Notes: generated by a model not told the origin, from the letters alone. A DNA stretch of 64,000 nucleotides from an uncultured Methanobrevibacter sp. (GCA_964409285.1 CAYPCR010000002.1:32149-96148), one strand, 5' to 3'; positions 6,324 through 12,257 are shown, counted from the stretch's first letter. Translations and numbers: made by a program.

Positions 6324-6959
6324 ATGGAATCAAAAATTTACATTGTTGGAATCGGACCTGGAGCAGAAGAATATCTTACAAAAAAAGCAATTGAAACTGT
6401 AGAAAATGCAGATATTGTAGTTGGAAGCGAGCGAGCTATAAAATTATTTGAAAATGTAGGAAAAAAACTACCATTTAATGTAAACAATTTAATGGAAAAA
6501 TTAGAAGAAGGAGTAGATTTAGCAATAAATGGTAATAATGTAGCTATTTTATCTACAGGAGATCCTGGATTTTCAGGAGTTTTAAACTCTGTTTTAAAAA
6601 TAGCTAATGAAAAAAAATATTCTGAAAAAAATATTGAAGTAATACCTGGAATAAGTTCTCTACAACTAGCTGCTGCTAAAAATCATCTGCAATGGGATAA
6701 CTGTAATGTTATGACATTTCATGGTAGGGAAAATATTGAAGAAATTTTAGATGTTGTAAATAATGGAAAAACTACCATTGCATTGCCTTCTAGAAAGGTT
6801 AAAGATATGGCTCAATTTTTATTAGATAATGGACTTTCTCCTTCTAGAGAAGTTACTGTTTGTGAACGTTTAAGCTATGAAGATGAAAAAATTGTTCACT
6901 CAACATTAAAGGATATTGCAAATAGTGAATTTACTTATATGTGTATATTAATAATATAA
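6324..6959 (+). CDS. cbiE: Cobalt-precorrin-7 C5-methyltransferase
   Basis: IVGIGPG, LSTGDPGFSG, IPGISSLQLAAA, ERLSY tetrapyrrole methylase motifs; stand-alone ~210 aa. Confidence 0.9.
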   Translation: MESKIYIVGIGPGAEEYLTKKAIETVENADIVVGSERAIKLFENVGKKLPFNVNNLMEKLEEGVDLAINGNNVAILSTGDPGFSGVLNSVLKIANEKKYSEKNIEVIPGISSLQLAAAKNHLQWDNCNVMTFHGRENIEEILDVVNNGKTTIALPSRKVKDMAQFLLDNGLSPSREVTVCERLSYEDEKIVHSTLKDIANSEFTYMCILII

Positions 6960-7099
6960 CCTAATTATTTACCTTATTTTTATTAATTTACTTTAAATAT
7001 TTAATATTATTAAATATTACCATTAATAAATTTGATTAAACCATAAATATCATATTATACAAAGTTTTCATGCTAATTTACTAAAATTAGTAATGAAAA

Positions 7100-10000
7100 T
7101 TGGTTGATAATATGATTAAAAAAATACATATTTTTTGTTTTTGTTTTCTTTTTTTATTGTTGATAGGATCTGTATCAGCAGAAAATATTGAAAATAAAAC
7201 AACTGAGAATGATTTAACACAATTAAGTGAAATATCAGAAATTTCAAATGAAAATATTGGAAATTACGCAGAAAAAACATATGATAATCCTATCTTAGTA
7301 ACAAAGGATATTGAAATGTATTATAAAGATGGGACAAATTATACAGTACAAATAACAGATGGTTTGAAACCATTAGACAATCAAAAAGTAAATATTAGCA
7401 TTCTTGGAGAAACTTATTTAAAAACTACAAATTCAACTGGCTATGCTAAACTATCCTTAGATTTATTGCCAGGACAATACACAATAGAAAGTTCATGTAT
7501 TTTTGATAATCGCCAATTATCCATAAAAAGTTTAATAAATGTAAAAGAAATGAATACGACTCTAATCGGTCAAGAAAAAGTTGAATTAGGATACAAAACT
7601 GAGAGTTATACTGTACAACTTCTCGGCGGAAACAACCAACCATTACAGAACAAAGAAATAATATTCGAAATCATAGGAAAAAAATACACAATCACCACAA
7701 ACAACAACGGACAAGCAAGCCTCCCAATAAACCTAATACCAGGCACTTACCAAATCACCACATACTATAAAGGTGAAAACAACATAAAAAAATCAAATCA
7801 ATTAAAAGCAACAATAACAGTCCAAAAATATGATACAACTTTAATAACAGATGACCCAATACTGAAATATAAAAATGGAGCTTTTAGCGCAACACTTACA
7901 AATTCAAAAAACCAACCAATGAAAAATACAGAAATTGAATTCCACATCATAGGAAAAAAATACACAATCACCACAAACAATACAGGACAGGCAAGTTTGC
8001 CAATTAATCTTCTACCTGGAAACTACACAATCACCACAAAATTCACAGGAAACATAGAATACAACCCAACAACAACCACAAATAAAATAACAGTTGAAAA
8101 ATATGATACAACATTAATAACAACCGATACAACATTGGAATATAAAAATGGAGCTTTTAGCGCAACACTTACAAATTCAAAAAACCAACCAATGAAAAAT
8201 ACAGAAATTGAATTCCACATCATAGGAAAAAAATACACAATCACCACAAACAATACAGGACAGGCAAGTTTGCCAATTAATCTTCTACCTGGAAACTACA
8301 CAATCACCACAAAATTCACAGGAAACATAGAATACAACCCAACAACAACCACTAACAACATAATAGTAGTAAAAAATTATCAAAATGCAGAAGAGAAAAA
8401 CTTTACAATTGAAAAGAAAGAAGAAAGTTATAATGGAAATAAATTGATTAGTCAAGATATAGACATGTACTATAATGATGGCACCTCCTACATAGTTCAA
8501 CTACTTAATGAAAATACAACATTATCAAACCACCCGATAAATATCACAATACTTGGAAAAACCTACACAATATATACAGATGAAAATGGAACTGCTAAAT
8601 TTCCAATAGAATTGGATTCAAATTTATATACAATTGTAACAAGCTGTATTTGTGATAATAAAAAATTATCAATGACAAATTATATCAATGTAAAAAAAAT
8701 GAATTCAACCCTAATTGGTCAAGAAAAACTTGAATTAGGATACAAAACAGAGAGTTACACCGTACAACTTCTTGACACAACCAACAAACCATTACAGAAT
8801 AAAGAAATAATATTCGAAATCATAGGAAAAAAATACACAATCACCACAAACAACAACGGACAAGCAAGCCTCCCAATAAACCTAATACCAGGCACCTATC
8901 AAATAATCGCATATTATGAAGGTGAAGATAATATAAAAAAATCAAATCAAATAAACACCAATATAACAGTTAAAAAATATGATACAACTCTAATAACAGA
9001 TGACCCCATATTGGAATATAAAAATGGAGCTTTTACAGCTATACTTACAAATTCAAAAAACCAACCAATGAAAAATACAGAAATTGAATTCCACATCATA
9101 GGAAAAAAATACACAATCACCACAAACAATACAGGACAGGCAAGTTTGCCAATTAATCTTCTACCTGGAAACTACACAATCACCACAAAATTCACAGGAA
9201 ACATAGGATACAGCCCAATAACAACTACAAATAAAATAACAGTTGAAAAAAATAAAATTAACATTACTAATGATTATTTTGAAACTTATTTTGGTGATGT
9301 AAATCAATATTTAATACCTGTTAAAAATTCAAATTCCAATAAAGATATAGCTGATCTTGATTTGAAAATTGGAGTATATGATTCTACTGGTTTAGTTAAA
9401 ACTTATGATGCTCGAACAAGTTTGGATGGAGTAGCTAGAATCGTGTTTGATTTGATGCCAGGTACATATACCTTGAAAACAAGTCCATCTAATGTCAATT
9501 ATATTGGGGAAAGTGTTCAGAGTATTAAAATAAATCAAACAGATGTTGTAGTTAAAAGTAAGGATTTGGTTTTAAATAGAAAAGGGGAGGATTATTGTGT
9601 TGAATTTAGAAATGCTATGAACAATCATCCATTAGCTAATCAAACAGTCTACATTTCTATTATCTCAAAAACATATACCATAACTACTAATAATTTTGGA
9701 GTAGCTAAACTTCCTATTAATCTTAACAATGGAAATTATACAGTAAAATATAATTTCAGCTCAAATCCTGGATATGTTCCTGCAATTGGATTAAATTGTA
9801 TTGTAAGAAATGATGAAATACTCGATAGTAATATTGAAATTTTAAACACTGATATACTTAGAAGAGGAACTAATCTAGAGGTTAAACTTACTGATTCAAA
9901 TGGAATAGCTTTGAAAAATAAGAATGTTCAGTTCCATATTATAAATAAAGTTTACACTATTAAAACCGATGAAAATGGTATAGCTAAATTACAAATCAAT

Positions 10001-11713
10001 TTGCTTGATGGGAAATATCCTTTTACAGTTGAATTTAATGGAAATAACTTGTTTAGAAGTTTTTCAATTTCTGATATGTTAATAGTGAATACAACTGCTG
10101 ATTTTAGCTATTCTTTAACTATTCCAACAAATAAAGTGTATAACAATAAAACACTTAACTTTTATAGGTTATTAGTCTGTGAATATGATAACAAAGAATA
10201 TAAATTTGATTATGGAGTAGATGAGAAAGGTTATACTCCAATTAAAAAAGGAGTTGATTATTTTATAACAGCCTATGGTCTTCAATATAATCATGATATG
10301 GAAAAACAAGGTTTAAATGTAAAAATTAATGATGATAATTTCAATATAACATTTACTGGCAAACTCTTTAATGACTTAAACCAATTTAGCGTTATCTATA
10401 GCTCACAAGATTATTGGGAGTATATAAATATTGTACTAAATAATGAAGTAGTTGCTAAAATAGCTATTTCAGACAAATATTATTATATTGATGAATTAAT
10501 GGCTGTAAATCCTCCATTATTAATTTCTGATGAAGATGTTCAGACAGTATTAAAAACTAAAGAAAATACTGTGGATAGGGTTTTACAAATTTTCTATGGA
10601 GATCCTTTACTTGAAGAAGAGAAAATTGATGAACCATATGAAGTTATCCAATCATTTGCAATATCATCTCAAATAATAACAGATAAGCAGATGAATGATG
10701 CAATTGAGAAAGGATGGAATCATAATCCTGATTATGAAGAATATGCCTATGAATTATTTATCTCTGGATTAATTACAACTTTCTATGCAGACAATTGGGC
10801 TAATGAAATAGGAAATGATTTAAATATAACCTGGAACAAAAAAGAGAATATAGTATTAATAACTAGAGATTGGTTAGGTTTAAGTTGTCATAGTGTAGGA
10901 GACATCAATGCCTATGGAAATGAAACAGATGTGAAAAATTTTTATTTAAACTATGGGCTTATGTATGCTACCTTTGAGCAATTAGGAATACAATTTACAG
11001 GAAACTATGCTGTATCAGCTGTTAGTGAAATATTTGACGGAATTTTAAATAAAAATGAAAGTTTTGTTATTGAAGAAAATAAAGATTCAATAATTTTAAG
11101 ACTTGTAAATTCTACAAATAGAATAGAAATCAACACAACCACAGGTAAAACAAAAGTAATTTTAGACAATATAAATTATCTTCCTTTTCAAACATTAAAA
11201 GGAGCCAGAGCACTTAAACTTGTAAATAAAATTAAGTCCACAACAACTTTTGGATATACATTAAGCAGTTTTAAACACGGAGTAAAAGGAATTATAAAAA
11301 CAATGTCACAAGCATTGAGAAATTTACCACTTCTGATAGATTATGGAGTTAGAGGTGCATCAACCATAGGACCGGCAATAAAAGGTTTATCTATGATAAG
11401 TAAACCGGCAGCTTACTTCAGTATAATAGGAATTTTAATAACAGAAGGAGAATTAATAGTAGATTATAGAAATAAATTCGCTAGTCATGACACATACCAA
11501 TATTTTTCTTATCATCCAAATAGCATAGGTTCTAAAACAATACATGTTTTAAATGAAAAAACAGGGTGTGTAGATTGTGTAGAAATACCAATAAAAGATT
11601 TCACAGGATTGGATATGGACAATGCAATTTACATTGATGGAAAAACAGGATCTCGGAAGTTAACAGAACAAGAGAAAATAAAATATAAAAATTACGATAG
11701 TAAATATAATTAG
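7100..11713 (+). CDS. Large secreted adhesin-like protein with Ig-like repeats and ~540-aa non-repeat C-terminal region (likely start ATG 7112)
   Basis: Signal peptide (KKIHIFCFCFLFLLLIGSVSA); about ten ~90-aa repeats of the type ...KTYTITTNxxGxAxLPINLxPGxY...; no C-terminal membrane anchor. Confidence 0.9.
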   Translation: MVDNMIKKIHIFCFCFLFLLLIGSVSAENIENKTTENDLTQLSEISEISNENIGNYAEKTYDNPILVTKDIEMYYKDGTNYTVQITDGLKPLDNQKVNISILGETYLKTTNSTGYAKLSLDLLPGQYTIESSCIFDNRQLSIKSLINVKEMNTTLIGQEKVELGYKTESYTVQLLGGNNQPLQNKEIIFEIIGKKYTITTNNNGQASLPINLIPGTYQITTYYKGENNIKKSNQLKATITVQKYDTTLITDDPILKYKNGAFSATLTNSKNQPMKNTEIEFHIIGKKYTITTNNTGQASLPINLLPGNYTITTKFTGNIEYNPTTTTNKITVEKYDTTLITTDTTLEYKNGAFSATLTNSKNQPMKNTEIEFHIIGKKYTITTNNTGQASLPINLLPGNYTITTKFTGNIEYNPTTTTNNIIVVKNYQNAEEKNFTIEKKEESYNGNKLISQDIDMYYNDGTSYIVQLLNENTTLSNHPINITILGKTYTIYTDENGTAKFPIELDSNLYTIVTSCICDNKKLSMTNYINVKKMNSTLIGQEKLELGYKTESYTVQLLDTTNKPLQNKEIIFEIIGKKYTITTNNNGQASLPINLIPGTYQIIAYYEGEDNIKKSNQINTNITVKKYDTTLITDDPILEYKNGAFTAILTNSKNQPMKNTEIEFHIIGKKYTITTNNTGQASLPINLLPGNYTITTKFTGNIGYSPITTTNKITVEKNKINITNDYFETYFGDVNQYLIPVKNSNSNKDIADLDLKIGVYDSTGLVKTYDARTSLDGVARIVFDLMPGTYTLKTSPSNVNYIGESVQSIKINQTDVVVKSKDLVLNRKGEDYCVEFRNAMNNHPLANQTVYISIISKTYTITTNNFGVAKLPINLNNGNYTVKYNFSSNPGYVPAIGLNCIVRNDEILDSNIEILNTDILRRGTNLEVKLTDSNGIALKNKNVQFHIINKVYTIKTDENGIAKLQINLLDGKYPFTVEFNGNNLFRSFSISDMLIVNTTADFSYSLTIPTNKVYNNKTLNFYRLLVCEYDNKEYKFDYGVDEKGYTPIKKGVDYFITAYGLQYNHDMEKQGLNVKINDDNFNITFTGKLFNDLNQFSVIYSSQDYWEYINIVLNNEVVAKIAISDKYYYIDELMAVNPPLLISDEDVQTVLKTKENTVDRVLQIFYGDPLLEEEKIDEPYEVIQSFAISSQIITDKQMNDAIEKGWNHNPDYEEYAYELFISGLITTFYADNWANEIGNDLNITWNKKENIVLITRDWLGLSCHSVGDINAYGNETDVKNFYLNYGLMYATFEQLGIQFTGNYAVSAVSEIFDGILNKNESFVIEENKDSIILRLVNSTNRIEINTTTGKTKVILDNINYLPFQTLKGARALKLVNKIKSTTTFGYTLSSFKHGVKGIIKTMSQALRNLPLLIDYGVRGASTIGPAIKGLSMISKPAAYFSIIGILITEGELIVDYRNKFASHDTYQYFSYHPNSIGSKTIHVLNEKTGCVDCVEIPIKDFTGLDMDNAIYIDGKTGSRKLTEQEKIKYKNYDSKYN
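7550..9247 (+). repeat. Intragenic direct repeats: unit A x2 (7550-7825, 8699-8974), unit B x3 (7826-8098, 8099-~8350, 8975-9247)
   Basis: B1/B2 period is 273 bp and the A+B block is duplicated at 1149 bp. Long nucleotide-identical stretches; the 35-nt core ATCATAGGAAAAAAATACACAATCACCACAAACAA recurs at 7670, 7946, 8219, 8819, 9095. Confidence 0.95.
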
Positions 11714-11736
11714 ATATTTTAAATTAGAATGATATT

Positions 11737-12225
11737 ATGCAATTTAAAACCAAAAGAAGAATAATAACTTTAATTTTCATTATTTTAGGGATTATACTTT
11801 TTTACGAAGAGTTAAAATTTACGAACAATATAATGGAAACAAAGTTTTTAGTGCCAGTTTATGAACTACTCTCCATAGTTGTAATCCTTTATAAACCATG
11901 GAGATGGGGAAATAAAGATAATCCTGAAGATGAAAAATATGTGAAAAATAGGAGCATGATAGATTTATATCTTGAGTGCGCATTGATTATTATTTGGACT
12001 ATAACATATTTATCATTGGAAGTTTATTATAACTCTATTGGAATCTTTATTCTTTCAATAGCTCTCATTGTAACAATAGAACAGAATGGATTTTACTTAA
12101 AATGTGATGATTGCAAAACTTCATTGGAATATCTTAAAAAACACGATAAAAAAAAGTTCAGGAATGCTCTAATTATCTGGTTTGGTTTAACAGCATCAAT
12201 ATTTGCATTATTAGTAATAAGTTAA
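11737..12225 (+). CDS. Small polytopic membrane protein (4-5 TM), co-oriented 23 nt downstream of the adhesin
   Basis: Five hydrophobic stretches and a CDDC motif; no recognised family. Confidence 0.8.
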   Translation: MQFKTKRRIITLIFIILGIILFYEELKFTNNIMETKFLVPVYELLSIVVILYKPWRWGNKDNPEDEKYVKNRSMIDLYLECALIIIWTITYLSLEVYYNSIGIFILSIALIVTIEQNGFYLKCDDCKTSLEYLKKHDKKKFRNALIIWFGLTASIFALLVIS

Positions 12226-12257
12226 AATAATTAATTATTTTAACTTATTCATATTTT

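Follow-up and report, generated by a model that had tools for sequence, protein, structure and literature searches.

In the 64,000-nucleotide (nt) stretch of DNA from an uncultured Methanobrevibacter sp. analysed here (GCA_964409285.1, CAYPCR010000002.1:32149-96148; hereafter the window), a gene for a large adhesin-like surface protein (7100..11713, + strand) is followed on the same strand by a gene for a polytopic membrane protein of 162 amino acids (aa; 11737..12225). The two genes form a real and conserved pair, which is not described in those portions of the published accounts that deal with adhesin-like proteins (ALPs) of methanogens (PMC11532034; PMC2812497). The small protein is very probably the cognate membrane partner of a module at the C-terminal end of the adhesin that contains a Gly/Ala-rich hydrophobic hairpin. 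As to function, we tentatively favour an effector/immunity-type pair, in which the hairpin end would be membrane-active on neighbouring cells and the small protein would protect the producer; we consider this possible and would not call it probable. The wider gene family is built like polymorphic toxin systems, and the window copy is a fixed, vertically inherited member of it.

The original prediction had described an adhesin with a signal peptide, an Ig-like stalk and a C-terminal region of ~540 aa, followed 23 nt later by a small membrane open reading frame (ORF), and this arrangement was confirmed. The adhesin ORF, supported by the ORF list, by Pfam and by orthologues adjacent to ArsA, encodes 1537 aa from the TTG at 7100 or 1533 aa from the ATG at 7112. 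The 162-aa ORF, taken from the ORF list, starts exactly 23 nt past the adhesin stop, and its hydropathy gives five hydrophobic segments with a predicted N-in/C-out topology. Since the 23-nt gap leaves scant room for a promoter, the two genes are probably co-transcribed.

Orthologous loci were gathered with the neighbouring ArsA protein as a syntenic anchor. The search gave 80 loci, nearly all labelled Methanobrevibacter, at 77–88% identity. An ORF matching the C-terminal profile lies beside ArsA and convergent with it in 61 of the 80 loci, which are representatives of 61 Methanobrevibacter species. Compared over full length, the window adhesin is 32–34% identical to the orthologues; for ArsA the value is ~87%. 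At 56 of the 61 loci (92%) the adhesin gene is directly followed on its strand by one or two small ORFs, each with two or more hydrophobic segments, and many of them overlap the adhesin stop by 4 nt. The baseline in the source genome is 6.6% (of 695 ORFs that are 300 aa or longer, 46 have such a small membrane neighbour). The source genome has 21 ALP-like ORFs that are 800 aa or longer; three have such a neighbour, and two of these three are the two genes that carry the C-terminal module. Adjacency of adhesin and partner is far beyond chance, and the claim that the two genes make a genuine pair holds. The third ALP-like ORF (884 aa; contig C25, minus strand, 6791–9445) is followed at +80 nt by a 105-aa ORF with two transmembrane segments; it does not fit the module profile and could be one more variant that the profile missed.

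The 162-aa protein has no family in Pfam, NCBIfam or PADLOC. It also has no other match at E ≤ 0.001 in 121 genomes of the family, only chance-level ones (E ~0.004–0.01) to unrelated ORFs. Its similarity to the small ORFs found at the same position in relatives is weak but significant (z = 5.2–5.4; 0–1 of 500 shuffles reach the score). The partner type of the window clade includes a 151-aa protein at locus L027 and 91-aa proteins at L003 and L005, and its only conserved motif, W.I.G..NP.S..YL, lies in predicted cytoplasmic loops. An internal duplication in the 162-aa protein, prompted by two BLAST segments, was rejected when the halves were compared (z = −1.4). Other orthologous loci have partners of family S1 (~60 aa, two transmembrane segments) or S2 (~112 aa, four transmembrane segments). 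The C-terminal half of S2 is related to S1 (hhalign probability 91%), and on this comparison S1 and S2 are paralogues; families D3 and D6 are also related to S1. Both S1 and S2 are conserved over dozens of species (BLAST E < 1e-6, composition-corrected). An early single-linkage clustering of the small proteins, made without composition correction, merged all of them and was discarded.

The adhesin opens with a signal peptide, MVDNMIKKIHIFCFCFLFLLLIGSVSA|EN (residues 1–27; 7100..7180, + strand), which ends in a VSA|E site of signal-peptidase type. A (G)xVSA motif is common to the orthologues P0002–P0004 and P0009–P0011, and the signal peptide is the best conserved part of the protein (mean pairwise identity 0.62 over the first 30 alignment columns of 55 orthologues). 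We infer that it would be cleaved at VSA. The stalk of Ig-like repeats (7280..10096, + strand) was delimited by Pfam matches and by alignment to orthologues; Big_3_5, MG4 and Big_1 match within residues 166–967. Methanobacteriales ALPs are recognised by a signal peptide together with repeated Ig-like (Big) domains, and the window protein has both in a Methanobrevibacter; it is a bona fide Methanobrevibacter ALP. The protein is ~430 aa longer than its orthologues of ~1000–1100 aa because the first part of the stalk has undergone a lineage-specific tandem duplication: residues 5–608 and residues 441–1529 each align to the N-terminus of the ~1100-aa orthologues. Within this duplication (~435 aa, within 7100–10096) there are near-identical repeat units such as KNQPMKNTEIEFHIIGKKYTITTNNTGQASLPINLLPGNYTITTKFTGN, which suggests a recent intragenic expansion.

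Scans with Pfam and NCBIfam revealed neither a sorting-signal anchor of the PGF-CTERM/archaeosortase or LPXTG/sortase type nor a pseudomurein-binding repeat in the adhesin. Its C-terminus is polar (...YKNYDSKYN) and the hydrophobic stretch ends 87 aa earlier, unlike in terminal sorting signals. The earlier statement that the protein has no C-terminal anchor may not hold, as the hydrophobic stretch is a candidate anchor, and the only one, in a protein with a conserved VSA cleavage site.

The region of ~540 aa behind the stalk had been called unique. It is in fact a conserved family module: a profile search found it in 174 of 314 Methanobacteriaceae genomes spread over 18 of 27 genera, usually at the C-terminal end of ORFs of 800–2800 aa. 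The source genome has two copies, and there are 1–4 module-bearing ALPs per genome among dozens of ALPs. The last 538 aa have no Pfam or NCBIfam match above threshold. A HMMER search of 1.84 billion representative proteins gave just 35 matches, most of which span residues 140–360 of the query and a subset of which adds the last 85 residues. The module begins with a beta-sandwich domain (residues ~1000–1130; 10097..10489, + strand), delimited by the AlphaFold2 model and by alignment. It is followed by a constant alpha/beta core domain (residues ~1140–1370; 10517..11209, + strand), which defines the family and is the most widely matched region. Next comes a basic amphipathic linker with the Gly/Ala-rich hydrophobic hairpin (residues 1394–1450; 11279..11449, + strand), recognised by hydropathy and composition. 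A Gly/Ala/Ile-rich stretch had been predicted here and is present, but it ends at 11449 and not at ~11466. Last is a conserved C-terminal tail (11450..11710, + strand), YRN.F..(Y/W)QY.SYH ... VEIP ... AIYID..TG.R.LT..EK, which is defined by the alignments, by identity and by the model.

An AlphaFold2 model of the 538-aa query, built with an 18-sequence alignment, has a mean predicted local distance difference test score (pLDDT) of 75 and a predicted template modelling score (pTM) of 0.76. It contains a beta-sandwich at query residues 1–125 (strands E3-E125, pLDDT 83–93), which is conserved in alignment A1, and an alpha/beta domain at 145–370. A low-confidence stretch (404–450, pLDDT < 50) covers most of the Gly-rich hairpin (query ~395–451), and the hairpin is followed by a helix and a beta-rich tail (479–531) whose strands reach pLDDT 76–89. 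The colicin-like layout that had been proposed is not borne out, as the model shows no helical bundle. Neither a PDB profile search with alignment A1 (no significant match) nor Foldseek of the model against PDB and BFVD (nothing at E ≤ 1e-3) related the module to a known structure.

The best 19-residue Kyte-Doolittle mean in the hairpin stretch is 1.5, which makes it marginal as a transmembrane helix. Over equivalent 40-aa windows the hairpins of the family consist of 39–43% Gly, Ala, Ser and Thr, compared with 21% in the transmembrane segments of the partners; for Gly alone the values are 13–18% versus 4%. The mean Kyte-Doolittle value is 1.05 for hairpins versus 1.94 for partner helices. It is important to note that the hairpin is Gly/Ala-rich despite a genome of 29% GC. 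By analogy, this composition resembles that of glycine-zipper membrane effectors.

In most relatives the core ends in YKGA.S..YC[YF]H..LT (alignment A1, columns ~460–480; proteins P0015, P0016, P0018–P0023, P0025–P0027 and P0035). The motif is degenerate in the window (LKGARALKLV), and its Cys-His is lost in the window clade. We take this junction to bear a loose resemblance to the CxCxHL|T self-cleavage motif at the G-protein-coupled receptor proteolysis site (GPS) of adhesion receptors.

Past the core and the YC[YF]H..LT junction, the ends of 109 genes of the family form 12 unrelated sequence clusters. Nearly all of these clusters hold a Gly/Ala-rich hydrophobic hairpin, followed by unlike tails. 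Type-A ends occur at 83 loci, including all orthologues of the window locus, and are mostly followed by small partners with 2–5 transmembrane segments that fall into at least 10 families; eight have no partner by the criterion used. Within type A, the window clade has its own partner family. Most of the other ends precede genes of the family D1, an unannotated protein of 200–300 aa with 5–8 transmembrane segments found in 102 of the 314 genomes. Across unlike ends D1 keeps the polar motifs R..F.D, GY.P and PD..NK..PFDLR. Thus, family-wide, the class of the partner tracks the class of the end. Pfam, NCBIfam and PADLOC gave sub-threshold noise only (e.g. AgrB, E = 0.008) for the last 538 aa of the adhesin, for the 162-aa protein and for S1, S2 and D1.

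Orphan cassettes were found in four genomes (L115, L133, L134 and L136), downstream of the main gene and its partner. Each consists of a 5'-truncated core, which starts near MKAAYGTF in the most conserved part of the core, an alternative end and a partner of its own that is often decayed. In one case the orphan core and the main gene of a different genome are 99% identical. The window itself has no orphan cassette; its relative L105 has tail fragments. Partner genes are amplified as well. G001 has three diverged intact small partner genes with decayed type-A tail fragments between them, and tandem partner duplicates occur in L106 and at the paralogue in the source genome. D1 genes are commonly in arrays: in G280 the order is D1-ALP-D1-D1 (L152, G280:C6:50000-62000), and at the syntenic locus G049 and G103 lack the ALP but still have three intact D1 genes (L150, G049:C1:443000-455000; L151, G103:C10:113000-126000). 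D1 is also found alone elsewhere.

Pairing, family architecture, orphan cassettes, partner amplification, rarity of the module and hairpin composition are what lead us to lean, with reserve, towards an effector/immunity-type pair. The rarity of the module among ALPs argues against a general anchor. In this reading the large protein would be exported via Sec, with its signal peptide cut at VSA, and would display the Ig-repeat stalk. The Gly/Ala-rich helical hairpin of the C-terminal module would enter a membrane, and the co-transcribed 162-aa protein, sitting in the membrane of the producer, would pair helix-to-helix with it. Insertion of the hairpin, its contact with the partner and toxicity are all conjectural steps. 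As the window copy is without the Cys-His junction motif, it may no longer release its end. One can go further and propose that a subset of ALPs, including this genus-wide Methanobrevibacter gene, are Sec-exported contact-dependent effectors whose hairpin, freed at C[YF]H..LT, depolarises the membranes of competing methanogens. S1/S2, the D4 type (to which the 162-aa protein belongs) and D1 would then be the immunity proteins, and the whole an archaeal counterpart of contact-dependent inhibition (CDI), WapA and TspA in gut and rumen. We regard this extended proposal as rather unlikely.

In its presumed way of working the locus comes closest to two groups of known systems. Polymorphic toxins with a Sec-exported, wall-associated carrier, the first group, are represented by WapA/WapI of Bacillus subtilis and, more broadly, by CdiA-CT/CdiI and Rhs. 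Like these, the family studied here has a large, repeat-rich exported protein in which a constant region and a junction are followed by ends that are unlike one another family-wide. It also shares with them a downstream small gene whose class tracks that of the end, 5'-truncated orphan cassettes and tandem partner arrays. Unlike these systems, it is without YD/Rhs, filamentous haemagglutinin repeat or LXG parts, and nearly all of its ends are membrane hairpins instead of mixed nucleases and enzymes. Moreover, the type-A end is uniform in 83 loci and nearly identical between strains. For polymorphic toxins as a concept in archaea see PMC8416519. That study describes VARTIG of Thermococcales, in which a large surface protein with Ig domains is followed by small proteins, many of them membrane proteins, in sets that vary; its authors likened VARTIG to polymorphic toxins and found no counterpart in other archaea (PMC8416519). 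The hypervariable part of VARTIG is a C-terminal Ig domain shuffled by recombination, whereas the module of our adhesin is non-Ig, bears a hairpin and is conserved within the lineage.

A second group for comparison are membrane-depolarising effectors with a glycine zipper or hydrophobic helix and a membrane immunity protein, i.e. Tse4/Tsi4, Tse5-CT/Tsi5, TspA/TsaI, TelE/TipE and CdiA-CT EC93/CdiI. The likeness lies in a Gly/Ala-rich hydrophobic segment at the C-terminal end and in a membrane partner, small or polytopic, encoded immediately after the effector; as with TsaI, partner paralogues stand in tandem arrays. Type VI, VII or V secretion systems deliver those effectors, but the adhesin has a Sec signal peptide only. 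It also differs from them by the conserved folded tail of ~87 aa after the hairpin, and Pfam, the PDB profile search and Foldseek detected no similarity in sequence or fold. Pore-forming colicins of the Cai and Cei types likewise have a hydrophobic helical hairpin, and their immunity proteins have 3–4 transmembrane helices that would recognise the hairpin in the bilayer. In contrast to colicins, our adhesin has no Pfam colicin pore domain and no translocation or receptor domains, and the model has no ten-helix bundle but an unstructured hairpin with beta-rich flanks. In addition, the partner gene here shares the strand of the adhesin gene, to which its translation is probably coupled, whereas the colicin immunity gene is on the opposite strand. 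Among known ALPs, those of the gut methanogens Methanobrevibacter and Methanosphaera are portrayed, like our adhesin, with an N-terminal signal or transmembrane segment and Asn/Thr-rich Ig-like 'archaeal big' repeats in the portions of the literature devoted to them (PMC11532034; PMC2812497). These portions do not include a C-terminal module of ~540 aa, a junction motif or obligate downstream membrane genes (PMC11532034; PMC2812497).

A number of observations weigh against the effector/immunity reading. Mean pairwise identity among the 55 orthologues is ~0.45–0.55 along the stalk and core and is lowest in the linker and hairpin (0.27). The tail reaches 0.59–0.60, second only to the signal peptide. 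Between L003 and L005, whose housekeeping proteins are 93–99.5% identical, the last 150 aa are 92–96% identical, the stalk windows 70–86% and the partner 91%. In four metagenomes most contigs of the same species reach 99% identity or more over 9.2–12.2 kb, tip and small gene included. The locus is vertically inherited and syntenic genus-wide, with a uniform end type among orthologues. Tips that co-vary between orthologous loci had been predicted, and we find the same end type with a tail better conserved than the stalk, both between strains and between species, which is the kind of conservation that the original prediction had itself named as refuting it. The end at this locus is fixed, inherited and non-polymorphic, the opposite of a polymorphic tip. 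The label of a polymorphic toxin/immunity system is only partly borne out for this locus: its gene-level hallmarks are seen in the family as a whole.

Further points in the same direction come from the partners and from the family. In the clade of L006, L030 and L142 the adhesin is intact but a partner gene is missing. S1/S2 genes nearly always adjoin the adhesin, with 1–3 per genome, and essentially no orphan S1/S2 islands were found away from it. D1 may have a function of its own, as its conserved polar motifs and solitary occurrence suggest. We looked for recent end-swapping between near-identical cores and found none among the 109 genes. No known toxin domain or fold was detected in the C-terminal module by Pfam, NCBIfam, PADLOC, the PDB profile search or Foldseek. 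Finally, the hairpin would be the only candidate anchor in the adhesin and the only plausible means by which the signal-cleaved protein is retained.

The last point leads to a reading without antagonism, which we consider possible though doubtful. Here the hairpin would fix the fibre in the cell's own membrane, the constant domain and tail would be a wall-spanning base, and the small protein would be a structural or assembly partner, so that the pair is a membrane anchor with its docking subunit. The conserved VSA site goes with this, as does the lack of any other anchor, pseudomurein-binding repeat or sorting signal in the scans described above. Divergence is fastest in the stalk and slowest at the C-terminal end, which is what one would expect of a C-terminus lying close to the cell. 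The genus-wide, syntenic, usually single-copy and vertically inherited locus, the near absence of strain polymorphism and the low number of S1/S2 genes, almost always beside an adhesin, fit as well. The 4-nt overlaps suggest stoichiometric co-production, and one clade retains the adhesin without a partner. PMC11532034 reports ALPs with membrane-anchoring helices at both ends, the C-terminal ones being proposed only as possible anchors. On the other hand, the module is used by two of the 21 ALP-like proteins in the source genome and is not a general anchor. Partners are unrelated between clades despite a homologous end. Arrays of partner paralogues, which stand intact in G049 and G103 without an adhesin, and orphan cassettes of end plus partner also speak against a docking subunit. 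So does the hairpin, which is Gly/Ala-rich and only moderately hydrophobic (1.05 against 1.94), unlike ordinary anchors in these genomes.

Some other dedicated membrane complex is unlikely in our view. It could be an adhesion-triggered sensor, in which the stalk binds an organism, a juxtamembrane domain with a possibly self-cleaving C[YF]H..LT passes on the force, and the hairpin and small protein signal; or the partner could be a processing or insertion factor for the end. The order of parts recalls adhesion receptors that cleave themselves at the GPS motif, though this is a resemblance only. The polar motifs that D1 keeps across unlike ends are more like those of an enzyme or a receptor than of a variable antidote, the only conserved motif of the window partner family lies in predicted cytoplasmic loops, and conservation is genus-wide. 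Yet in the family scans no component shows a signalling domain or falls into a known enzyme family, the junction motif is lost in the window clade, and the partners are very small and their loops short. This reading would also leave the orphan cassettes and the arrays of partners unexplained. That the small ORF is an unrelated gene or a spurious hydrophobic frame after an ordinary adhesin gene, as its lack of family and of matches and the preference of AT-rich codons for Ile, Leu and Phe might suggest, is highly improbable given that a 162-codon open frame is very unlikely at 29% GC (estimated ~1e-6 per frame), that L027, L003 and L005 have homologues of the ORF in the equivalent place, and that adjacency and the conservation of S1 and S2 are as described above.

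The attachment and roles of the dozens of ALPs in gut and rumen methanogens are little understood, and antagonism in archaea is barely documented. The locus defines an easily recognised conserved module with a cognate membrane partner in most Methanobrevibacter species. If the effector/immunity reading is true, it would give a first handle on competition between methanogens in animals and possibly narrow-spectrum anti-methanogen agents. If the pair is an anchor complex, it would account for the attachment of one conserved surface fibre to a cell with a pseudomurein wall and would single out a conserved target on the surface. Note that the effector and anchor readings predict opposite outcomes.

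GC content in the window is 26–33%, and the proteins of neighbouring genes are 77–88% identical to Methanobrevibacter records. A perfect AT-rich palindrome, GTTAAAATAATTAATTATTTTAAC (12221..12244, no strand), read directly from the DNA, sits between the convergent genes for the 162-aa protein and for an ArsA/Get3-type ATPase and is likely to be a bidirectional terminator. The flanks are shared with orthologues in metagenome assemblies, with a GTPase or TP_methylase on one side and ArsA, NadE and LeuRS on the other. At L003 the small partner gene and ArsA are separated by an inserted 263-aa ORF (9956–10747) with a faint Rpn-family helix-turn-helix match (recombination-promoting nuclease or transposase-like); the sister locus L005 does not have this ORF. 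At the ArsA locus no partner is retained without an adhesin, and the clade that has no adhesin there has a different gene order. This is a single Methanobrevibacter clade (L056, L059, L070, L071, L086, L088, L098 and L101) that includes a metagenome-assembled genome of M. olleyae. Its ArsA side carries neither adhesin nor partner but a 186-aa ORF, presumably similar to DNA-3-methyladenine glycosylase, and a Cys-rich protein of ~160 aa. A further contig filed under 'Bacteroidaceae bacterium', L026 (CAVDAS010000046.1), is probably mis-binned; the ArsA on it is of Methanobrevibacter type (84% identical) and is accompanied by an ALP-like gene of 886 aa.

Exact 31-mers of the locus are present in pig-gut, dust and wastewater metagenomes. 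One 420-nt metagenome piece differs from the window by ~4%: record 20 of run X6, which spans window positions 11353–11775 from the tail through the intergenic gap into the first codons of the small gene, shows 17 substitutions and 2 gaps. The other pieces of run X6 are identical to the window. This suggests that a second allele, ~96% identical, may exist in the pig gut.

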